UHGV virus genome: UHGV-1355554
DNA length: 41,630 nt
Source of the DNA: a virus
Reading direction: 5' to 3' (one strand)
The position numbers and the translations under genes are program-made. Shown piece after piece: positions 1,703 to 41,586 of the stretch (position 1 is its first letter; every line of letters begins with the position of its first letter). Below the pieces are notes generated by a model. That model was not told where the DNA came from. It ran no database searches and saw only the letters and a list, made by a program, of their open reading frames with translations.

Positions 1703-3007
1703 TTATTTTACACTCTCCTCTATCATTTCATTGGTAAAATCTTTTCCATTTGTAACTGTCTCAAAGATCTTTTTCTCAATTTGTGTATCTGGAATAATGT
1801 GGATAAAATTAGGTGTACACTCCTGACCAAATCTATCAACTCTAGCTTTTGCCTGAATATAGTCTGTAGAACTTAATGGCATAGAATTGAATACGCATAC
1901 ACTAGCTATTTTCAAGCTATTGATGCCTGTACTAGCACTTTTATATTGGGCTAAAACCACTCCATTATCATAGTCTTTGAAATTAGTCAAATCTTTATTA
2001 TTTCCATTATAACTACTATATGGTCTTTTTAGTTTATTCAACAGTTCTGAAATCATATAAAACTCTGCGTTGTAATTATAAAATATGACCACTCGTTCAC
2101 CACTGTATTCTTCTAGTACTGCTTGTAAACGCTCAAACGGTTCTTTAGACACCTGTTTGTGTACACCTTTAAGAAAACCATGTGATATTTGACGTAGGGC
2201 GTTAAATAATTTACTACTATTGTCTAGCTCAATAATATTATCTAGGTCGTCTTTGTACATTCTGACTTTCTTTAATTTATTATAAAACGCAGGCTTTTTG
2301 GTCTTATAATAAAAATCTTGTGGCATATATGGTTTATCACGTTCATACCTAACACTTACTTTATCAATCATTTGTTTCAATAAGTGCTCGTTGCGGTAAC
2401 CAATAATCTGCATGAATCTAGCGGATCCCATTTGTTGCATGCGTTCAGTTACAAATAATTCATAGAACTCTTTTTTTGGCTTGCGGAACACATTTAACAT
2501 GTGAAGTTGACTATAATAGTTTTCTAGTTTTCCGTTTGCTACTGGTGTTGCAGTTAATAATCTAACGTGAGTGGTCTTTTTACATAAATTCATCATGAAT
2601 TTTGTTACCTTTGATTTTGGTACTGACACCTTATGGCTTTCGTCAATTATGATGTATGTGTTTTTATCAACCCAGTTTGTCAATTCAGTTAAGCGCCAAC
2701 TACTCTCAAAGCTAATGGCTACCCTGTCTGACTCTGACAATAGTTGTTTATTTTTAGTAGTTCCTTTATTTAAAGGGGTAATGGTAATTCCCATTAATTG
2801 ACCATCTTCTGCAAAGTCAGCTACTTTTGGAGCTAGACAAACCACTAGCAATTTACTACAGCCACTTTTCAAGTAGGCTCCAAGTGCTGAGTACGTTTTT
2901 CCAGTTCCAGCGGATGATAAGTCAAAGTTCTTTTTATCAGATAATTCAATAGCTTCTACTTGATGTGGAAGAAGTTCTACTTTACCTATTTTATTCTGCA
3001 TATTCAA
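1703..3007 (-). CDS. SF2 (DEAD/DEAH-like, SNF2-type) DNA helicase
   Basis: Walker A SSAGTGKTYSA, motif II IIIDESH, and C-terminal helicase motifs (QAKARVDRFGQ). Confidence 0.75.
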   Translation of the reverse strand: MNMQNKIGKVELLPHQVEAIELSDKKNFDLSSAGTGKTYSALGAYLKSGCSKLLVVCLAPKVADFAEDGQLMGITITPLNKGTTKNKQLLSESDRVAISFESSWRLTELTNWVDKNTYIIIDESHKVSVPKSKVTKFMMNLCKKTTHVRLLTATPVANGKLENYYSQLHMLNVFRKPKKEFYELFVTERMQQMGSARFMQIIGYRNEHLLKQMIDKVSVRYERDKPYMPQDFYYKTKKPAFYNKLKKVRMYKDDLDNIIELDNSSKLFNALRQISHGFLKGVHKQVSKEPFERLQAVLEEYSGERVVIFYNYNAEFYMISELLNKLKRPYSSYNGNNKDLTNFKDYDNGVVLAQYKSASTGINSLKIASVCVFNSMPLSSTDYIQAKARVDRFGQECTPNFIHIIPDTQIEKKIFETVTNGKDFTNEMIEESVK

Positions 3008-3680
3008 AAGTGTAGCCTCCTGTTTGCTTTTGCTCGTTGTTTAAACATCGTCTCAGCCCTGTTCTACGCACATTAAGCTTTTCAGCTGTTGCGGTTTGAT
3101 TGTGACTATATATCACCTCTCCTGTTTCAATATTAGTAGCTTTGAATAATCTCCCACCTAATGTTTTAGATATTTTATCTCGTGTATCAACTGATAGTTT
3201 TCTACCACGGAGTGCCTCGCTTTTAGCCTTAATGTGTTCAGATGACTGAGGTCTACCTTTTAATTTTGACTCATGCATTAAGTAGTGATTTCTAAGACCT
3301 TTACTGATATTACTCCTCTTTTCTAATGTCCAATTTATATTTTTACTACGTACACTCTGTTGTTTTTTAAATTCTTTGGAATGTTTCATACCTCTTGCTG
3401 GACAGTCACCTCCTACAGATATGTTATATCCATATTGCTGGTCTGTAGTATTGTATTTATTAATCAACTTAATCTCTAGTAGACACGCCTCCGTTTTTGT
3501 TAATCCTTCTTTTATAATAAAGTGATTGAAATTTTCCCACCCATATTTTAATATTGAGTTTTTAAAATGCTTACTACTATAATTTTTTCCATTATTCCAT
3601 CTCTTCAGTGGATTTTGTGACGTTATTCCAAAATATTTTTTATTGTTTACTCTGTTAACATGTAAATATACTATATACAT
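2991..3680 (-). CDS. GIY-YIG homing endonuclease
   Basis: N-terminal YIVYLH...KKYFGITS (GIY-YIG motif). NUMOD-like basic repeats. C-terminal ...TGGYTFEYAE tail shared with the HNH homing-endonuclease DNA-binding domains in this window. Confidence 0.8.
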   Translation of the reverse strand: MYIVYLHVNRVNNKKYFGITSQNPLKRWNNGKNYSSKHFKNSILKYGWENFNHFIIKEGLTKTEACLLEIKLINKYNTTDQQYGYNISVGGDCPARGMKHSKEFKKQQSVRSKNINWTLEKRSNISKGLRNHYLMHESKLKGRPQSSEHIKAKSEALRGRKLSVDTRDKISKTLGGRLFKATNIETGEVIYSHNQTATAEKLNVRRTGLRRCLNNEQKQTGGYTFEYAE

Positions 3681-10383: not shown

Positions 10384-10657
10384 ATCAACAACCGCACAGT
10401 CAAAATTATTTTTAGGGAGACCCAAAATGTTTTTACCCCCTACCTTTTTATAACGAATTAATCGCTGCCCCCTCTTCTTCGCACAAAAGTCCCAAAACCA
10501 ACTTTGAAAAACGTCCTTTTCCCTCGTAAAACGTAATAAAAAACTGGTTTCTTGTGTTGAAACACAAGGATTCACACTACATCTAGTATGCTATTTCCCT
10601 TTAACGAGTATTCCCCCAATAAACAAGATTGAAGCTGGTTTCTTTACACAAGATTCT
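10384..10657. other. Candidate cos/packaging-site region: non-coding, C-tract rich, with direct repeats
   Basis: C-tracts TTACCCCCCTACC, GCTGCCCCCTCTTC, TTCCCTCG and TATTCCCCCAAT. Repeats CTGGTTTCTT...ACACAAG (10544-10570 and 10634-10655), a CTTGTGTT-GA-AACACAAG palindrome and AAAACGT x2. Sits between the HNH and terminase genes. Confidence 0.3.
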
Positions 10658-10730
10658 TTTTATATGATATAATAAAACTATATAAGGGATTTTTTATTTA
10701 AATCAAAATTAACGTAAGGGAGGTAGAACA

Positions 10731-31640: not shown

Positions 31641-31676
31641 AAAAAGACACTCTTAGTTGAGTGTCTTTCTTTTGTA
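31641..31676. terminator. Bidirectional rho-independent terminator between the convergent lysin and PnuC genes
   Basis: 10-bp stem AAAGACACTC/GAGTGTCTTT with an A-run upstream and a T-run downstream. Confidence 0.65.
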
Positions 31677-31704: not shown

Positions 31705-31740
31705 AATTTAAAGTGCTCAGAATGATCGTGAGAACATCAT
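31705..31740. repeat. Lysis-cassette boundary motif B: AATTTAAAGTGCTCAGAATGATCGTGAGAACATCAT
   Basis: Partner of 29962-29997. Overlaps the stop codon of the PnuC gene. Confidence 0.5.
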
Positions 31741-32438
31741 TTTTTATCATGATTAAACCAATTTGATACAGTGAAAGCAATAATATTATTAGCTAGGTAT
31801 AACGTATATGTGAAGAACAGTACCCAAACGGCATGACCATCAATAGCTGTTACTAACCATAATACAATGCTCATGATACCTTGTGTGAACCAGAAATAAT
31901 ACTGCGCTGAAAACTGGCGGACACATAGGAAAGCACCTGTAAATCCAATTGTAGCACTTAAAGCGTCAATAAACGGGCGTGGTGAACTTAAAACGATTGT
32001 ATCAAGCCCATACAATAAAGCAAAGGTTGCACTGAAAAATAATAGTGTTTGAAGTTTATGTTTTGTTTGTAATTTACGTGGGTTAAATACTTTCCATTTA
32101 CCTAAGATAATTGGAATATCCAACAACAAAATATAAGCTAGTTGCATTAAGATGTCACTATAGTTACCAGTAACCATTGCCACATAACACAGTAATAAAG
32201 CAGATACGAAGCCTAGAATACCATTAATTGGTTTACCTTCTGTAATAGCTAACGTACATGTAAATCCTAACATACCCGCAATTGTACTGGTGAATGATAA
32301 CAGTGTTAAGCCATCTTTAAATCCAATAAGGAATAAGAATAACAAACCAACCCCCAAAAGAATATAGCTTTGTTTATGCCACCCTTTAAATTGCTTTTTG
32401 TAATATTTATATGTTAATAATTGAGTAATGTTTTCCAT
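31737..32438 (-). CDS. PnuC-like nucleoside / nicotinamide-riboside transporter
   Basis: 233 aa, about 7 TM segments, Trp-rich C-terminal helices. Adjacent to the deoxynucleoside kinase gene. Confidence 0.6.
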   Translation of the reverse strand: MENITQLLTYKYYKKQFKGWHKQSYILLGVGLLFLFLIGFKDGLTLLSFTSTIAGMLGFTCTLAITEGKPINGILGFVSALLLCYVAMVTGNYSDILMQLAYILLLDIPIILGKWKVFNPRKLQTKHKLQTLLFFSATFALLYGLDTIVLSSPRPFIDALSATIGFTGAFLCVRQFSAQYYFWFTQGIMSIVLWLVTAIDGHAVWVLFFTYTLYLANNIIAFTVSNWFNHDKK

Positions 32439-32477
32439 GTGTATATAGTTCCCCTTTTAATTAATATTTTTATCTGA

Positions 32478-33281
32478 TTAATATAATTTTTTATTATCTG
32501 TAAACTGGCTTAGCTCATGAAAGGGCATTTTACCAGCGGAATAATTATATAAGTCTAAACCATATTTATTGGCGTTCTTCATATTCCATTTTACGCCGTT
32601 TAGTTTAGCTAGTGTGTATACCGCTTCAACCGTACTTAACGCGTTCACTTCATGAAGCTTATAAATAATTTGTGTAAGCAGTTCTATACGGTCTTGCTTA
32701 CAATTTACATAATCATAAGAAGTTACGTCTAAAACAATTTTTGGAAATCCTAAGTCTTTATCTATCCATTTCTGATAATTTTCGTGATGTCTTTTGAAGT
32801 ACTCAAATAGTTCAGTACCTTCTTCAACCTTTTCAAACTCTCTAGCACGTGTGTTAATGCGTTTAATTTCTTCTTCAAATGTGCAGTTTAAGACAATCAT
32901 TAAATCTGGTGTTTTCTTTGGTAATGGTTCTAATTCTTTTAACATACGATTTAATAATCTATGATAAACTTGTTGTTCCAGTTCGCTTACATGTCCTTCC
33001 TGCACCAACTGGTCTAAAAAGATAGAGTCTTCAAAAATGGAACGGTCTAAAATACCATTGTTAATACTCATAGCCTCTTGAATCATTTCAAATCGTTTAC
33101 TTAACATATCAATCTGAAACAATAAACCATATTTTGCTTTGTCTTGATAAAACAATTCAAGCATTGGATTTTCTTCAACAGGTTCATAGACTGCTTTGGT
33201 CTCCAGTAACTCACTTAATAATTGTGTCATTGAGGATTTACCTACCCCAATTGGTCCAGCTAATGTAATAATCATAATCAA
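32478..33281 (-). CDS. Deoxynucleoside kinase with a roughly 50-aa C-terminal extension
   Basis: P-loop GPIGVGKSS, YEPVEENP, LDRSIFEDSIF (DRS motif) and lid RINTRAREFE. Confidence 0.8.
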   Translation of the reverse strand: MIMIITLAGPIGVGKSSMTQLLSELLETKAVYEPVEENPMLELFYQDKAKYGLLFQIDMLSKRFEMIQEAMSINNGILDRSIFEDSIFLDQLVQEGHVSELEQQVYHRLLNRMLKELEPLPKKTPDLMIVLNCTFEEEIKRINTRAREFEKVEEGTELFEYFKRHHENYQKWIDKDLGFPKIVLDVTSYDYVNCKQDRIELLTQIIYKLHEVNALSTVEAVYTLAKLNGVKWNMKNANKYGLDLYNYSAGKMPFHELSQFTDNKKLY

Positions 33282-33290
33282 ATCCTTTCA

Positions 33291-33512
33291 TTATTTTAAA
33301 TTTTTCAAGTTTTGAGGTTGAAACCCCATTGCAATCAACTCACCATTATTAAAAACTACTGGTAATGTTCTAAGGTTGTTAGCCATTAAATAATTATAGG
33401 CATCTAAGTCCTCCTCTACATTTACCTCTTTAAAATCTAAGTTATTATTTTTCAGCCAGTTTTTTGTGAATTTGCAGGCTACGCAGTTTGTCTTTGAGTA
33501 CACTTTAATCAT
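33291..33512 (-). CDS. NrdH-like glutaredoxin
   Basis: MIKVYSKTNCVACK (CxxC). ATG at 33512 with AAAAGGAGG. The track's start at 33551 lies inside the promoter. Confidence 0.7.
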   Translation of the reverse strand: MIKVYSKTNCVACKFTKNWLKNNNLDFKEVNVEEDLDAYNYLMANNLRTLPVVFNNGELIAMGFQPQNLKNLK

Positions 33513-33570
33513 TTGTATTCCTCCTTTTACTTTATGAATTAAGTATAACACCTCAGTTAAGAGGTGTCAA
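33513..33570 (-). promoter_or_regulatory. Early promoter (TTGACA-17-TATACT) plus leader, with embedded inverted-repeat operator ACACCTCAGTTAAGAGGTGT (33548-33567)
   Basis: Same architecture as 1636-1682. The operator arm differs by a compensatory C>T / G>A pair. Confidence 0.5.
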
Positions 33571-33574
33571 GTGT

Positions 33575-35866
33575 TTAGTCAATGTAGTTTCTGACACTAG
33601 GCGTCTTGTATCCGAGTTTACTTCTTTTGGCATGTGCTTGCTCAATCCTCTCTTTCCACGTTGCACCAAACCACATTACTAGTAAATCCTCTACCTGGTT
33701 TATATAGTACTCTTTATCAATATCATCAAGAGTTATCCATCCTTCACCAATAGCTTCATTGTCAATGGCGTAATATTCAGGAGCATTAGGTAAACCTTTA
33801 GTGTATGAATCATCACCAACAATCGTTGTGCCTTCCTCTTCAATTACAGCTCCTCGTTTCACCTTGAATATTTCAACAGCTTTATTAGGGTCTTTTATTG
33901 CAAATGTACGGTTTACTTTTTGTGCTTTCTTTTCATTACCTTCACTATCACGTACAATAGTATCATCAAATGTCCAGCCAGTTTTAGTAATCATTTGGAA
34001 CTGACGTAGTTCGTCGCATTCATTGATAAACTCTTTATAGTCTTTACCAGCAACTACATAGTTAATGAATGCATTTGAAACAATTGCTTTAGATACTTTC
34101 AAACCATTTGTTAAACCAATAGCACCTTTAAACTTCACTTTTCCATCAGTTGTGACAGCCAAGTAATTATTTACATTGGCTTGATATATTTCTCTGAACG
34201 GATCATCATCTAATGTGTAACCTGTTCGTTTCATCCAATCATTTGCAATCTCATCAATGGCTTTTTCATCTTCTTCACTGAATGGAATATAATAATGTGC
34301 GTCTGTGTTTGATTGAATAATAGTAGCGTGGTCTTCAATCTTTTCTAGTAAATCCCACATGGCCATCTGTCCAGTAATACATACTAATAACCTCATGCGC
34401 GGATCATATAGTTTATTAAACTCAGCTCCCATTGCACCATATTTAGTATTTAGAGGTAGTTTGTAACCATTAATCAATAACTTAGTTGGAATCTGAACGC
34501 CTTTAATTTCAGTAAATTCTTTATTAGAATACTTAGCTTCCATCCGTTCATCTAATAACATTTGATAGATATGCCGCTTATCTTCTGGGATGTTTCTTGA
34601 TAAGTAGTCAAACAATACCATTGTATTTGGATACAACGAACCTACGTCACGTGCGTGGAAGTTTCCTACATGAATAAATGACTCTTTAGCTCCATGAATA
34701 CCACCTACTCCTAAAACCTCTGTTACGTCTCTACGTGGTACATCTAATGAAATGCTGGCATGTCCTTTTTCATTAGCTTCAAAATCATCTGTCATAAACG
34801 CCTGACGGATTGTCTCTGACTCAATTTCAAAACCTTCTGGCAGTTCATACTTGTCTAACTCGTCACCTCTATCAGGTGTTTTTTCAGCCCCTAATAATTC
34901 AGCAGTCAAGTTTGCGTTAGTCATTGAGAGTGCCATTTTATCTAAACCAAAATATAAGGCAATTGCAGCTTTAGCTACTAACATACCTATGTTTTGTTCA
35001 AAGCGTTTTTCCGTAGCTAACACGTCATTTTTACAATATAGCTCGTTCAATACTTGTTCTTCTTCAGTTAGTTCTCTATCTAAATCAAAGTCTACTTCAG
35101 TTTCTTTAATATTAATACCCATGAACGCACTATGTTCTTTCAAACTAAAACCCCTATTGTCTTGATACAAATCCATCCCAAACAGTGGTGTTTTCTTAGT
35201 ATCAAACATTTTATATACTAATGCTCTATCATCACTTTCAATAATCGCTTTTGACACATGAAATGGATTTTTACCTTGTAAATATGCACGCATGACATTG
35301 GAATCATATGAGTGTGAGTTATAACCAACAAATAATGAATCTCTATTCGCTAGATAGAACTTGCGTAACGCATCTAAATCATTATGAATAACTGTCCATT
35401 CTTTAGTGAAGTAATCTCTAAAGACAAATAAATTATCTTTTTTAAATACTTCAATATCATAAATATAAATTGTTTGGTTGGTTAGTGCCTCATTTGGTTT
35501 CTCAGGTAAATCTTCAAGCACTGCTCCTTTTTGATTTATGGTTACATTTGGGAAACCATTGTTGTATTTTAGAGTGATGTTTAGTTGCTGTCCAACTTCT
35601 ATATTTTCCCACGTTTTCCAATCTTGTTTACGAAACTTCATAATATAGATAGTAGCATCTCTACCATCTTTTAAACTTCTAAGCTTAATCTCACGCATTT
35701 TTTTACCTTTTGCAGATAAACGTTCCTCTGATTTAATAACTACAACTTGATGGACACCTTCTACTAGCGGATCAAAACTCTTGGCATTGCCTGCAAGTGC
35801 TGCGAATATTTCTAATAGCTTACTTGCTAACTTTTCAGCACCTTTGAATTCTGCAATATTTTTCAT
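33575..35866 (-). CDS. Family-B DNA polymerase with 3'-5' exonuclease domain
   Basis: Exo I YIYDIEV, Exo II YNSHSYDSNVM, Exo III YCKNDVLATEK. Pol motif A DVGSLYPN, motif B-like KLLINGYKLPLNTKYG, motif C region SNTDAHYY. Confidence 0.8.
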   Translation of the reverse strand: MKNIAEFKGAEKLASKLLEIFAALAGNAKSFDPLVEGVHQVVVIKSEERLSAKGKKMREIKLRSLKDGRDATIYIMKFRKQDWKTWENIEVGQQLNITLKYNNGFPNVTINQKGAVLEDLPEKPNEALTNQTIYIYDIEVFKKDNLFVFRDYFTKEWTVIHNDLDALRKFYLANRDSLFVGYNSHSYDSNVMRAYLQGKNPFHVSKAIIESDDRALVYKMFDTKKTPLFGMDLYQDNRGFSLKEHSAFMGINIKETEVDFDLDRELTEEEQVLNELYCKNDVLATEKRFEQNIGMLVAKAAIALYFGLDKMALSMTNANLTAELLGAEKTPDRGDELDKYELPEGFEIESETIRQAFMTDDFEANEKGHASISLDVPRRDVTEVLGVGGIHGAKESFIHVGNFHARDVGSLYPNTMVLFDYLSRNIPEDKRHIYQMLLDERMEAKYSNKEFTEIKGVQIPTKLLINGYKLPLNTKYGAMGAEFNKLYDPRMRLLVCITGQMAMWDLLEKIEDHATIIQSNTDAHYYIPFSEEDEKAIDEIANDWMKRTGYTLDDDPFREIYQANVNNYLAVTTDGKVKFKGAIGLTNGLKVSKAIVSNAFINYVVAGKDYKEFINECDELRQFQMITKTGWTFDDTIVRDSEGNEKKAQKVNRTFAIKDPNKAVEIFKVKRGAVIEEEGTTIVGDDSYTKGLPNAPEYYAIDNEAIGEGWITLDDIDKEYYINQVEDLLVMWFGATWKERIEQAHAKRSKLGYKTPSVRNYID

Positions 35867-35967: not shown

Positions 35968-36201
35968 TCATTGGAAGAGCCTAAACTGTCTTGGATGACC
36001 TTGCGTTTGCATATATAACACATCATCTAACTTATACACAGCAATCGTTTTCTTCTTGTTTGCAATCATCATTTGCGTTGGATCAATCTTTATATATACC
36101 TCATTAAAATGTCTATTAATGATTACACCATCTTCATCTTTCACTGTAAGTACTAACTTGTCCACTAACATCATGTATTTTTCCTCCTTATTTGAAATCA
36201 T
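35968..36201 (-). CDS. Hypothetical protein (77 aa)
   Basis: ORF. Confidence 0.45.
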   Translation of the reverse strand: MISNKEEKYMMLVDKLVLTVKDEDGVIINRHFNEVYIKIDPTQMMIANKKKTIAVYKLDDVLYMQTQGHPRQFRLFQ

Positions 36202-36520
36202 CTTTATTCATCAATGCACCAATAATATTGAATAGTGAAATAATTGTAGGAATGCCTGTCCAACAGAACACTAGTTTAATAAGTCCTGTTACTGGTTTTC
36301 CAACGTAGAAATCATGTGCGCCAATTCCTCCTAAGAAGAGTGCTAGCAATAAATAAACAGTCAAACTTGGCTTACTAGAATCCTCTTTCATGCTTTTAAG
36401 TTGTGCTAATTTTTCCTTTAAAATTTCGTTTTGTAATTGATCGTTAGTCATTTCTTTTTCCTCCTTATGTGGTGCGTTCATTTTCTTCAATGTTTCTAAT
36501 ACTGGATTTTGTTTTGTCAT
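36188..36520 (-). CDS. TM2-domain membrane protein
   Basis: LLLALFLGGIGAHDFYVGKPVTGLIKL is the TM2 signature. Confidence 0.6.
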   Translation of the reverse strand: MTKQNPVLETLKKMNAPHKEEKEMTNDQLQNEILKEKLAQLKSMKEDSSKPSLTVYLLLALFLGGIGAHDFYVGKPVTGLIKLVFCWTGIPTIISLFNIIGALMNKDDFK

Positions 36521-36770: not shown

Positions 36771-37319
36771 TTAATCTACTCCTTTATATTTGAATGTGTA
36801 TCCACCAGTTTGTCTGCGTCTACCTTTTAGAACTGATGTAATATTTCCTGAATTAAGTCCCAATTGTCTAGTGCATTCGTTAGTACTATTGAACTTCGTA
36901 GACTCGCCAGTCGTTAGATTAGTTGCAATGATTGGAATACTATTCGTTTTAGCCATTCTTTCATTACGTGTTCCGTGATTAATATTTTCCTTAGTAGTCA
37001 TCCATTCTAAATTTGGAACTTTATTGTTAGTTTTATTCTCGTCTATATGATTAACATCTGACTTATTTTCCGGGTTTGGTATGAATGCTTGAGCTACTAG
37101 ACGATGGATTCTCTTAGTAGATCCAATATTGTTTTTATATAAGTTAACTACTAGATAGCCAGTGATATGTTTACTTCCCTTCAAAATTCTATCAGTATAT
37201 GAACTCTTAACCCTCCCAAGAGCACTAACCTGATACAACCCTTCATATCCTTCAATATCTTTCCAAATCTCTTCCATTTTTATCTTCCTCCTCTTTATCT
37301 TACAAGTTAATTTTAACAT
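36771..37319 (-). CDS. HNH homing endonuclease (NUMOD4 plus HNH_3)
   Basis: [53 protein letters not shown]...NLEW...GGYTFKYKG. Confidence 0.85.
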   Translation of the reverse strand: MLKLTCKIKRRKIKMEEIWKDIEGYEGLYQVSALGRVKSSYTDRILKGSKHITGYLVVNLYKNNIGSTKRIHRLVAQAFIPNPENKSDVNHIDENKTNNKVPNLEWMTTKENINHGTRNERMAKTNSIPIIATNLTTGESTKFNSTNECTRQLGLNSGNITSVLKGRRRQTGGYTFKYKGVD

Positions 37320-39861: not shown

Positions 39862-40617
39862 TCATCTTACTAACCAGTTGTCAACATCTTTTTGAGTTAT
39901 TTTTCCTTTTGAACGTTTAATTAACCCCTCAAAAGTGCGATATGTTTCTGACTGGTGTAGTTCTACATTAATCATATCAGGTTTTCCAAATTTGTCAACA
40001 AATAACTCTCTTTCTGTTGTACTCAAGTGACGGTAACTACCATTACTAAACACGTCATATCCAGTGTGCGTTTTAGTTGATTCGTAAAATTCAATGACTT
40101 TAGGGTCATAATTAGCTTCAAGCAATAGTATATCAATCTTTATATCATTTTCCAAAAGATACTTTTCATAGTCTGTCATTGTACTTAAATCAGTGGCAAA
40201 CAGAGTGTTTTGGTTAGGGGTCTCCATAATGAAACCATGTGTTTCTGCATACTCTTCTCCAGCTCCATGATAATTCTGAAGTGTTGTGAACTTAACTTCA
40301 CCAATTTGAAATTGGAAGTCCTCTTTGAATATAAGGTCTAATTGTGGTAAGCTACGTTTTTTCAAGTTGTCTTGTACTTCTTGATTACCTAATATTTGAA
40401 TATGTGGAAAGTTTTCTCTAATCTTTTTATATGTTGTATATACAAGATGATCTTGGTGGCGATGAGTTAACAAAATAAATTGCTTGTTAAATAAATAGGG
40501 CTCAATGTGTTTATATGGCTTCCCTATGTCAATTAAGAATCCTAAATTATCATAATAGATAGAGGCGCAGTTTCCTTTACTTCCTGTATAGTGAATATCA
40601 AAACTAAATTCGTTCAA
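39862..40617 (-). CDS. MBL-fold metallo-hydrolase
   Basis: [11 protein letters not shown] (HxHxDH). TTG start 8 nt after GGAGG is assumed. The track's start at 40632 overlaps the HNH gene. Confidence 0.65.
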
Positions 40618-41125
40618 TGTGCCAACCTCCAACTGTTTTACGTTTACCAGATATTACATCTGATACATGTCCGCTTGATAAACCATATTTTAAACAAAAT
40701 TCTTTCTGAGAATTATATTTTTCTTTGATGTTACTTTTAGTACAAATGATAGGTTTACTATTTGTTATACACATTCTTTTTATTGCAGTGCCATGATTTC
40801 TATTCTCTTTATTTGTCATCCACTCTAGGTTGTATACCATGTTATTAGTCTTATCCTCATCAATATGGTTTACCTGTGGTTTATTTTCAGGGTTTGCTAT
40901 GAAAGTTTCTGCTACTAGACGGTGAATTGTCTTAGTAGATTGAATACCATTTTTAGATAATCCAACTCTTAAATATCCTTTCCTATTTACTGATGGTTTC
41001 AAAATCCTATCCGTAGTATTGGTATTGTTTACAGTATGCCGTTTCAAAGATTTAACTCTCCCTAAATTACTTACTTGATATCTACCTTCATATCCTTCAA
41101 TATCTTTCCAAACTTCTTCACTCAT
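40604..41125 (-). CDS. HNH homing endonuclease (NUMOD4 plus HNH_3)
   Basis: [54 protein letters not shown]...NLEW. Confidence 0.85.
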
Positions 41126-41586
41126 TTATTTCTATCCTCCCATCTAAACCCTTCCAATTCCCATAATTCTTTACCAAGTTCCGTTGCTGTCTTCCATTTA
41201 TCTTTATCTATTGCATTGTTAATTTCAACAATCAGAGCATGTCGTTTTGGCTCTACTTTCTTTCTAAAAGGACGTGCTACACGTTCTACCCCTTCTTTTG
41301 GATTGATGGCGTAACCAATGTTGGTATAGTGACTATTTTGTACGTTGCCATCTTTAAAATATAAATATCCTAGATTATGCTCATTTTTAACAAACATATC
41401 TGCCACTAATTGAGAGATATAGAACTTACGTGACTTCTTATGTGACCCATGAAGAACCACGTACATCTTTCCATTCTTTTGGTCAACTAGTTCCGTTTCA
41501 TATCGGTCTTTGTCTAAATGAAACACATGACCCTCATCTGTTATGGCGTACATATCGTACGGCTCGTTCAATGGTTCAAATCTCAT
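41122..41586 (-). CDS. HNH_3-like homing-endonuclease homolog with a degenerate catalytic motif
   Basis: [10 protein letters not shown] / YVVLHGS...[11 protein letters not shown] align with the NUMOD4/HNH_3 copies. The expected NHIDxxxxNN is [15 protein letters not shown], so the His is lost. Confidence 0.5.

Follow-up and report, generated by a model that had tools for sequence, protein, structure and literature searches.

A deoxynucleoside kinase and a PnuN-like transporter form a recurring gene pair in Enterococcus phages: candidate deoxynucleoside salvage

Facilitated diffusion combined with trapping of the substrate by a kinase has been demonstrated for Pnu transporters, using PnuT in proteoliposomes (PMC5749112). 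In enterobacterial phages, the NARP3 pathway couples a kinase to a PnuC transporter, and the pair takes up and phosphorylates nicotinamide riboside (NR) to rebuild NAD+ (PMC13464706). Another Pnu protein, PnuN, was predicted by Rodionov and Gelfand in 2005 to be an NrdR-regulated deoxynucleoside transporter, as cited in PMC7749635. Here we analyzed a viral DNA of 41,630 nucleotides (UHGV virus genome UHGV-1355554; "the window" hereafter denotes this whole stretch), which is essentially a complete 41.6-kb Enterococcus siphophage genome. Three consecutive minus-strand genes of the window encode a redoxin, a deoxynucleoside kinase (dNK), and a PnuC-family transporter, and all three open reading frames (ORFs) are present where the initial annotation had placed them. 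That annotation proposed that the gene products import nucleosides and phosphorylate them to feed phage DNA synthesis, a reading that the protein families, operon, and context largely support; sequence comparisons would sharpen "nucleoside" to "deoxynucleoside". We judge it reasonably likely that the genes form an early/middle operon that supplements the supply of deoxynucleoside triphosphates (dNTPs) by deoxynucleoside uptake and trapping, for a phage that has its own DNA polymerase and no ribonucleotide reductase (RNR).

The transporter is a member of the PnuC family, as had been proposed. Its ORF scored 81.5 bits against PF04973 (cutoff 27.3; E=9.4e-23) and 74.1 bits against TIGR01528 (cutoff 42.45), and matched phrog_1880 at E=3.4e-59. 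An AlphaFold2 model made from 30 homologues had a predicted local distance difference test (pLDDT) score of 91, and its sole significant match in the PDB was the PnuC structure 4QTN (TM-score 0.80). The seven transmembrane (TM) helices assigned earlier hold for the core of this model; one extra N-terminal helix brings the total to eight.

Pnu proteins bind their substrates through a TM6 motif, WxxW(x)3D/N, and mutation of the Asp residue abolishes thiamine binding by PnuT (PMC5749112). Likewise, NR binding was lost when the equivalent Asn of the phage NARP3 transporter Bas30_87 was mutated (PMC13464706). The corresponding stretch of the window protein reads Y180-Y-F-W183-F-T-Q186-G187. In an alignment of 30 subfamily members with the PnuC proteins of N. 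mucosa (4QTN) and E. coli, the four residues that coordinate NR in 4QTN (SEQRES Q99, Q171, N189, and Y217) correspond to I111, A169, G187, and Y214 of the window protein; three of the four are replaced, and the Tyr alone is kept (in the numbering of PMC13464706, the NR-coordinating Q124, Q196, and Y242 correspond to I111, A169, and Y214). The key TM6 position is Asn in both the N. mucosa and E. coli proteins and is Asn or Asp in none of the 30 subfamily members. A nine-position pocket signature, NDAYWQGYN or Ser/Ala variants of it, was found in 60/60 close phage homologues. Apart from the kept Tyr, none of the attributes of an NR-specific PnuC that we looked for was detected, whether the TM6 Asn/Asp, the other NR residues, or linkage in the genome with NAD regulation, NadR, or an NR kinase. 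More distantly related (~30% identity) is a viral Pnu group (L064-L082, IMG/VR contigs) whose motif, YxxWxxSD, retains the canonical Asp found in PnuT; judging from this motif, the group probably represents a different substrate class. One member of this group (L082) has a gene for a 209-amino-acid (aa) dNK 1.6 kb away.

The same pocket occurs in bacterial genes that carry NrdR-type sites. Among the best 80 Lactobacillaceae chromosomal loci from one genome-collection scan, position 187 was Asn or Asp in 0/80 homologues and position 186 was Gln in 79/80. Palindromes of 16 bp of the NrdR type (ACACWANATNTWGTGT, with ≤3 mismatches) occurred at 1.86 per kb upstream of these genes compared to 0.13 per kb in the flanks, a 14-fold difference. 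Tandem NrdR-like boxes spaced 30-31 bp apart, which is the usual layout of NrdR operators, were present at 16 loci. The pocket signature is common to all 16 of these tandem-box loci, 15 of them being identical to the phage protein in it, and their products share 44-47% identity with the phage transporter. Bacterial genes that combine NrdR boxes with this pocket match the predicted deoxynucleoside transporter PnuN. By orthology with the tandem-box loci, a comparison made with these and not with the original L. acidophilus PnuN sequence, the phage transporter appears to belong with the PnuN group. Moreover, two GenBank phage records bear the SEED-derived name "PnuC-like NrdR-regulated deoxyribonucleotide transporter". 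Because the pocket lacks the NR residues and its bacterial counterparts are tied to the NrdR regulon, we read the substrate as a deoxynucleoside, and the automatically assigned name "nicotinamide riboside transporter" is probably a misnomer. The protein is thus probably a PnuN-type Pnu transporter and not a nicotinamide riboside PnuC.

Several further observations were made in the bacterial set. NrdR boxes lay at Companilactobacillus, Latilactobacillus, and Lacticaseibacillus loci instead of at those of the closest homologues, which are considered below. No Enterococcus PnuN orthologue was among the best 80 loci of the scan. In one Lactobacillus assembly (L007, 124-2312), the PnuN-like gene adjoins a phage-type integrase gene, and in a sister genome (L006, 5737-5826), it adjoins a tRNA gene, which hints that a bacterial PnuN-like copy can lie at the boundary of a mobile element.

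The second protein belongs to the non-TK1-like dNK family. The kinase ORF spans 32478-33281, and its likely start is the ATG at 33275 behind GAAAGGA, which gives a protein of 265 aa. Residues 5-205 scored 126.4 bits against PF01712 (cutoff 27; E=1.7e-36). The P-loop (GPIGVGKS), YEPV, and DRS motifs and the Arg-rich lid (RINTRAREFE) are intact, so that profile, motifs, and fold agree with the dNK assignment of the initial annotation. In the alignment, E31, P32, D77, R78, S79, R143, and R145 are invariant, and G10, G12, K13, and R139 are ≥90% conserved. Fold matches were to the deoxyadenosine kinases (dAKs) of Giardia (8PUU) and M. mycoides (2JAQ/2JAS) and to human deoxyguanosine kinase (dGK) and deoxycytidine kinase. 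By analogy with its nearest characterized relatives, the kinase probably acts on deoxyadenosine, deoxyguanosine, and deoxycytidine.

These results bear on a NARP3-like alternative, in which the transporter would import NR, the dNK-like kinase would convert it to nicotinamide mononucleotide (NMN), and the host would complete NAD+ synthesis to counter NAD+-depleting defenses. The placement of the kinase gene directly upstream of the PnuC gene is the architecture of validated NARP3 (PMC13464706), the protein exceeds the cutoff of TIGR01528, whose title is "nicotinamide riboside transporter PnuC", and eukaryotic NR kinases fall in the dNK/NMP-kinase superfamily (PMC11681623). However, throughout the subfamily, other residues stand in place of the Asn and the two Gln residues that bind NR, and the kinase that scores 126 bits against PF01712 scores 21 bits, below the threshold of 27, against AAA_28, the NadR ribosylnicotinamide kinase (RNK) type, and has no nicotinamide mononucleotide adenylyltransferase (NMNAT) domain. 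Neither is there an NMNAT gene in the window, nor one for NadR, Nampt, or another NAD-salvage enzyme. The neighbors of the pair are deoxynucleotide genes in every lineage and never NAD genes, the bacterial homologues have NrdR boxes, and when the window and three bacterial loci were scanned with Rfam for riboswitches, only tRNAs were returned, with no NAD riboswitch. We consider NAD+ salvage an improbable function of this locus.

The pairing of kinase and transporter recurs among Enterococcus phages. A dNK gene lies 3-55 nt upstream of the PnuC gene on the same strand in every Enterococcus phage locus that has the transporter (~19 distinct contigs in at least four lineages, a count that leaves out the Kochikohdavirus-type myophages). 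These lineages comprise ~41-kb siphophages, ~72-kb phages (9181 and EH93P), the 86-kb Denvervirus group (9183 and nattely), and the ~150-kb Schiekvirus group, and their PnuC proteins are ~42-55% identical to each other. The dNK-PnuC bicistron is the recurring functional unit. The surroundings differ in detail. In EFP01, anaerobic RNR genes (nrdD) lie upstream of the cassette and a glutaredoxin (Grx) gene downstream; in phage 9183, the order is nucleoside deoxyribosyltransferase, terminator, dNK-PnuC, terminator, and NrdH-like Grx; and in Lactobacillus phage 8014-B2, the transporter gene lies between a DNA polymerase gene and a glutaredoxin/nucleoside deoxyribosyltransferase pair. Alloscardovia venturai (L143, 5941-7483) has a PnuN-like gene followed directly by a dNK gene, the reverse of the phage order, and a weak NrdR-like box at -120. 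Around each of these four loci (EFP01, 9183, 8014-B2, and Alloscardovia), we found deoxynucleotide genes and no NAD-metabolism genes. Kinase adjacency in just 2/80 bacterial loci implies that the operon linkage is a feature of phages, plus Alloscardovia.

The kinases encoded ahead of PnuC differ from their bacterial relatives in length. Bacterial relatives have 206-219 aa, and the Enterococcus-phage kinases ahead of PnuC have 262-287 aa. The C-terminal extension of ~50 aa noted initially is real and amounts to ~60 residues (~206-265), with three helices (215-225, 232-245, and 252-260) confidently predicted beyond the last kinase helix (pLDDT 87-96; predicted TM-score of the whole protein, 0.87). 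Across lineages, with ~30% identity in the tail, the pattern is A-L-x-L-Y-N ... G-x-x-P-(F/Y)-H-(E/N)-L-x-x-(F/I)-x-D, in which Y, N, and D are invariant; the pattern is also read as ALxLYN...G..PFHELSxFTDN. Solved dNKs align over ~205-245 columns with query-normalized TM-scores of 0.60-0.67, and part of the query is unaligned in every match; the lengths of dNKs and the Pfam boundary suggest that this part is the tail. A Pfam scan of tail members and a PDB profile search gave no relatives, and exhaustive phmmer searching of 1.84 billion representatives returned only kinase fragments and two spurious repeat proteins, so the tail could not be assigned to a known domain. In this exhaustive search, the tail occurred only on Enterococcus-phage kinases. 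We also rejected a basic membrane anchor: the window tail has an isoelectric point of 9.3, but values range over 4.9-9.3 across lineages, and charge is not conserved.

A possible role of the tail is suggested by the Giardia dAK, the best structural match to the kinase core: extensions at both of its termini assemble it into a tetramer whose substrate affinity is much higher (PMC11662666). Our best guesses by analogy are that the tail promotes higher-order oligomerization that raises substrate affinity or that it docks the kinase near the transporter. A kinase that works behind a uniporter must hold the internal deoxynucleoside level very low, and a Giardia-like gain in affinity would suit it.

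The tail and the transporter co-vary. In the long form (the window, L009-L017, and related contigs), the gene order is Grx, dNK (265-270 aa), and PnuC. In the short form (KEN22, dArtagnan, L163, L164, and twelve IMG/VR contigs), a Grx gene is followed by a dNK gene (223-237 aa) that abuts the endolysin gene, and PnuC is absent. The Kochikohdavirus-type myophages (EFDG1 and relatives) have the long kinase form. Some short-form kinases are 82-88% identical to the window kinase over the common part, and the myophage long forms are 80% identical to it. PnuC was present with 19 and absent with none of the long-tail kinases whose surroundings were examined, and present with 1 and absent with 16 of the tail-less kinases (Fisher's test, p=2e-9, for distinct contigs that are not phylogenetically independent). 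One apparent long form without PnuC (L173, 264-aa ORF) proved to be a frameshifted short form. In the siphophages, a single contiguous segment accounts for part of this signal. By blastn, homology with the short-form phages stops at window position 32703 (kinase residue ~191) and restarts at 31746, inside the last three pnuC codons, so that 956 nt of the window stand opposite 92 nt in L163 and L164. The terminal codons of the short form (C-L-S-R-A-F-stop) are recognizable as non-coding DNA just past the window pnuC stop. A clean indel was rejected, because blastn shows replacement of a segment and a MAFFT global alignment had misplaced the short-form 3' end.

In a neighbor-joining tree of the kinase core, drawn without support values, the bacterial enzymes lie outside, the long forms are basal, and the short forms occupy several nested positions; the short forms have at least five unrelated C-terminal endings. 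From these sequences, it looks as though the long form with PnuC is ancestral in the phage clade and loss has been recurrent; recombination is common among these phages. One metagenomic sibling phage (L177, 3421-4485) has, directly downstream of the gene for a tail-less kinase (...YFSKKVYQA), a pnuC gene with 90.6% identity to that of the window, and this sole case of PnuC without the tail led us to reject an obligatory coupling of tail and PnuC.

The kinase and redoxin might instead serve nucleotide metabolism while the PnuC protein has an unrelated role (with another vitamin or nucleoside as substrate, or through an effect on the membrane) and the tail is a neutral remnant, the genes being independent morons that are neighbors by chance. 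PnuC genes without an adjacent kinase gene in Lactobacillus phages and in 78/80 bacterial loci are consistent with this explanation, as are the viability of short-form phages and the partial origin of the siphophage tail-PnuC co-loss in one 956-nt segment. Against this, adjacency of dNK and PnuC within 3-55 nt is kept in at least four lineages whose PnuC proteins are only ~42-55% identical, and tail positions are conserved at ~30% tail identity in a confidently predicted fold, unlike a neutral remnant. We therefore regard chance association as unlikely.

The redoxin is the weakest link of the scheme. It matched PF00462 (E=1.5e-14) and contains a CVAC motif, and its start is the ATG at 33512 behind a ribosome-binding site, AAAGGAGG, which gives 73 aa; position 33512 in the initial annotation is thus the correct ATG, and an 86-aa ORF starting at GTG was rejected as an over-extension that swallows the promoter. 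NrdH proteins have a C-V/M-Q-C active site and a WSGFRP motif. The top match among solved structures is E. coli NrdH (1H75, E=2.2e-9), and alignment with it showed CVAC for CVQC and AMGFQP for WSGFRP, with LPVV kept. The protein is only NrdH-like, the label given earlier: the signature motifs are degenerate, and the score against TIGR02194 (NrdH) is 75.8 bits, below the cutoff of 85.75. The window encodes no RNR at all, in agreement with the initial annotation, and hence no class Ib enzyme (NrdEF) as a partner for the redoxin; such a partner would have to come from the host. A small homologous Grx accompanies the cassette in three lineages, at differing positions, and is retained in siblings without PnuC, which ties the redoxin to the kinase/polymerase region and its deoxynucleotide neighborhood and not to the transporter. 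It may reduce a host class Ib RNR or serve another thiol-dependent step.

These findings suggest the following mechanism. The Pnu protein would act as a uniporter in the host membrane, through which external deoxynucleosides would diffuse in down their gradient. The co-translated dNK would convert them to deoxynucleoside monophosphates, which the transporter would not carry, so that trapping would keep the gradient directed inward. Host kinases would finish the path to dNTPs, and the NrdH-like redoxin may act as a reductant for the host class Ib RNR or for another thiol step. In this mechanism, we infer the substrates of both proteins, the net direction of flux, and the role of the tail or the redoxin. 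The families, folds, intact motifs, operon structure, recurrent linkage, and deoxynucleotide context are direct observations.

The same parts and context would also fit counter-defense or pool repair against dNTP-depleting immunity of the dGTPase or dCTP-deaminase type, in which the kinase would re-phosphorylate internal deoxynucleosides and the transporter would top up the pool. This logic parallels the NARP pathways (PMC13464706), and the patchy distribution and repeated loss of the cassette are typical of accessory genes in an arms race. However, no defense system or trigger was linked to the cassette, the data fit plain supplementation of the pool equally well, and a uniporter could equally leak internal deoxynucleosides. 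We think that a primary role in counter-defense is quite unlikely. A broader proposal is that the dNK-PnuN pair, with the tail as a coupling or oligomerization element, would constitute a dedicated "deoxynucleotide reconstitution" system, a dNTP counterpart of the NARP pathways that acts when host dNTPs run short or when dNTPase or deaminase defenses deplete them; we offer this as a speculation with a small chance of being right.

Several points weigh against a deoxynucleoside salvage operon. The function of PnuN is itself a comparative-genomics prediction of 2005, and the searchable literature holds no transport or kinase assay for any subfamily member. No NrdR boxes were detected at the closest bacterial homologues (L083-L104; 46-58% identity), which come from Pediococcus, Fructobacillus, and Weissella, and no kinase gene lies within 6 kb of the gene in 78/80 bacterial loci. 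TIGR01528, the NCBIfam equivalog model for PnuC, scores above its cutoff, so that automated pipelines name the protein an NR transporter, and NR kinases of eukaryotes belong to the same broad kinase superfamily as the phage enzyme (PMC11681623). Retention of PnuC with a tail-less kinase in L177 shows that the tail is not strictly required and argues against an obligatory tail-transporter partnership. Finally, the many siblings without PnuC and the tail imply that the cassette is dispensable in the laboratory.

A near-consensus promoter precedes the three genes and a bidirectional terminator follows them (Table 1), with 9 nt from the redoxin stop to the kinase ORF and 39 nt from the kinase gene to pnuC. 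No NrdR boxes were found in or upstream of the phage module, and elsewhere in the window there were scattered 3-mismatch matches and one unrelated 1-mismatch site at 10574; the lack of a box at the module implies that the phage genes are not under NrdR control. The GC content of the module (0.31-0.33, compared to 0.35 for the genome) was uninformative about recent foreign acquisition. The neighboring 763-aa polymerase matched phrog_1252 (E=1.2e-169) and had no Pfam or PDB sequence match. The motifs DIE, DVGSLYPN, and KLPLNTKYG are readable in its sequence, and these, the PHROG match, and one weak NCBIfam match point to the family B type named in the initial annotation. The gap between the polymerase and redoxin genes (window 33513-33574) is an insertion hot spot among siblings (compared with L001 4153-4671, L002 4140-4340, and L011 3087-3803): in the window it holds the promoter only, whereas KEN22 has an HNH endonuclease gene there, dArtagnan a small ORF, and L011 and RG1 a DNA methyltransferase gene.

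Table 1. Features of the kinase-transporter module and its borders in the window
Feature	Coordinates	Strand	Basis or remark
Promoter-like site, TTGACA-17 nt-(TG)TATACT	33542..33570	-	11/12 consensus positions plus extended -10 TG; consensus match alone; just past polymerase stop, upstream of redoxin gene
Glutaredoxin-fold, NrdH-like redoxin, 73 aa, CVAC active site	33291..33512	-	PF00462; 1H75 match
dNK catalytic core, residues 1-205 of 265	32661..33275	-	PF01712, fold, motifs
Kinase C-terminal tail domain, residues 206-265 plus stop codon; three predicted helices; orphan	32478..32660	-	pLDDT, conservation
Pnu-family transporter, probable PnuN-like subfamily, 233 aa	31737..32438	-	Profiles, fold, TM6 motif
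Bidirectional intrinsic terminator, common to the convergent PnuC and endolysin genes	31643..31668	.	10-bp stem, T-runs on both strands
956-nt segment (kinase C-terminal third, spacer, and PnuC), opposite 92 nt in close PnuC-less phages	31747..32702	-	blastn breakpoints against L163 and L164
DNA polymerase with family-B-type motifs; adjoins the operon, not part of it	33575..35866	-	phrog_1252 and motifs

The plus strand of the genome carries the structural and lysis genes, and the minus strand carries the replication genes; large early ORFs encode a primase, a helicase, homing/HNH endonucleases, and a metal-dependent hydrolase. An IMG/VR contig (L016/L165; 41,322 bp) encodes PnuC and kinase proteins identical to those of the window, and the nearest isolates are the E. 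faecium phages KEN22, SSBHU, RG1, IME-EFm5, dArtagnan, and Aramis, with 84-89% nucleotide identity over the polymerase region. Away from the module, the intergenic region 10384-10730 ahead of the packaging genes contains the 1-mismatch NrdR-like palindrome ACACTACATCTAGTAT at 10574, a direct repeat CTGGTTTCTT...ACACAAGATTC that occurs twice ~70 bp apart, and C-rich runs, and may be a regulatory or packaging-related site. Four homing-type endonuclease genes are scattered through the replication module (2991-3680, 36771-37319, 40604-41125, and 41122-41586). Three of them are HNH genes, two of these being adjacent and overlapping, and the product of the other is a homing endonuclease that also matches the GIY-YIG family more weakly. 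A 110-aa ORF (36188-36520) is charged in its N-terminal half and contains a hydrophobic segment, GKPVTGLIKLVFCWTGIPTIISLF, toward the C terminus, and its position is kept in dArtagnan (333-nt ORF).

Many public phage genomes already carry annotations for the individual genes of the cassette, and catalogues of phage "NMN transporters" exist (PMC6163359, PMC11210271). In the literature searched, we found no discussion of the dNK-PnuC unit, of a PnuN-type reassignment, of the orphan tail and its co-variation with PnuC, or of recurrent loss of both. If the deoxynucleoside salvage interpretation is correct, dozens of genes that bear the name nicotinamide mononucleotide/riboside transporter in phages of Enterococcus, Lactobacillus, Weissella, and relatives carry the wrong label and are instead evidence of DNA-precursor import by phages. 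The logic of a Pnu transporter plus a kinase would then extend from NAD+ (NARP3) to deoxynucleotides, a second metabolite with a phage uptake-and-trap device. Siblings with and without the cassette would provide a natural test bed for the long-predicted PnuN transporters, for the effect of external deoxynucleosides on phage yield in habitats rich in DNA, the gut among them, and for a new dNK domain. Moreover, in phage therapy of vancomycin-resistant E. faecium, burst size under limitation of nutrients or RNR could depend on whether the cassette is present. Should the reconstitution proposal hold, this would be the first experimentally tractable deoxynucleoside-specific Pnu transporter.

Compared to described systems, the locus most resembles NARP3 (Bas30_86, a NadR-like RNK-NMNAT, and Bas30_87, a PnuC; Sci Adv 2026, PMC13464706) in its layout, since both are two-gene phage cassettes of a kinase and then a Pnu transporter with a logic of facilitated diffusion into the cell and then phosphorylation. 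By contrast, the kinase is a dNK (PF01712) here and a NadR RNK-NMNAT in NARP3, and the NR-binding Asn and Gln residues are replaced here. The hosts are Enterococcus and the neighbors dNTP genes in our case, compared to Enterobacteriaceae and NAD genes for NARP3; NARP3 is validated, whereas the present cassette is known from sequence and has, in addition, an orphan kinase tail and an associated redoxin. With PnuN, the phage transporter shares the Pnu subfamily (41-58% identity), an identical or nearly identical NDAYWQGYN signature, and the tie to deoxyribonucleotide metabolism. The bacterial genes are, however, mostly monocistronic and in part lie behind tandem NrdR operators, whereas the phage gene has no NrdR box and lies in a kinase operon.

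The PnuC/NadR and PnuT/thiamine kinase systems (PMC5749112; 4QTN) have in common with this locus the fold (TM-score 0.80), a 7-TM core plus an N-terminal helix, the positions of the gate Trp/Tyr residues, and the principle of kinase trapping. The motif WxxW(x)3D/N reads YxxWxxQG in the phage protein, and a different substrate is expected from this change. The non-TK1-like dNKs (2JAQ/2JAS, 8PUU, and the Lactobacillus dAK/dGK) share the catalytic core, motifs, and fold of the phage kinase, and the Giardia dAK shows that extensions at the termini can change quaternary structure and affinity (PMC11662666). Unlike the solved dNKs and bacterial relatives, only the phage kinase bears a 60-residue, three-helix C-terminal domain. 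Finally, the redoxin resembles NrdH (E. coli 1H75 and C. ammoniagenes 1R7H, its best sequence matches) in size, glutaredoxin fold, CxxC position, and LPVV, and differs in its CVAC and AMGFQP motifs, a score under the TIGR02194 cutoff, and the lack of a cognate NrdEF in the window.

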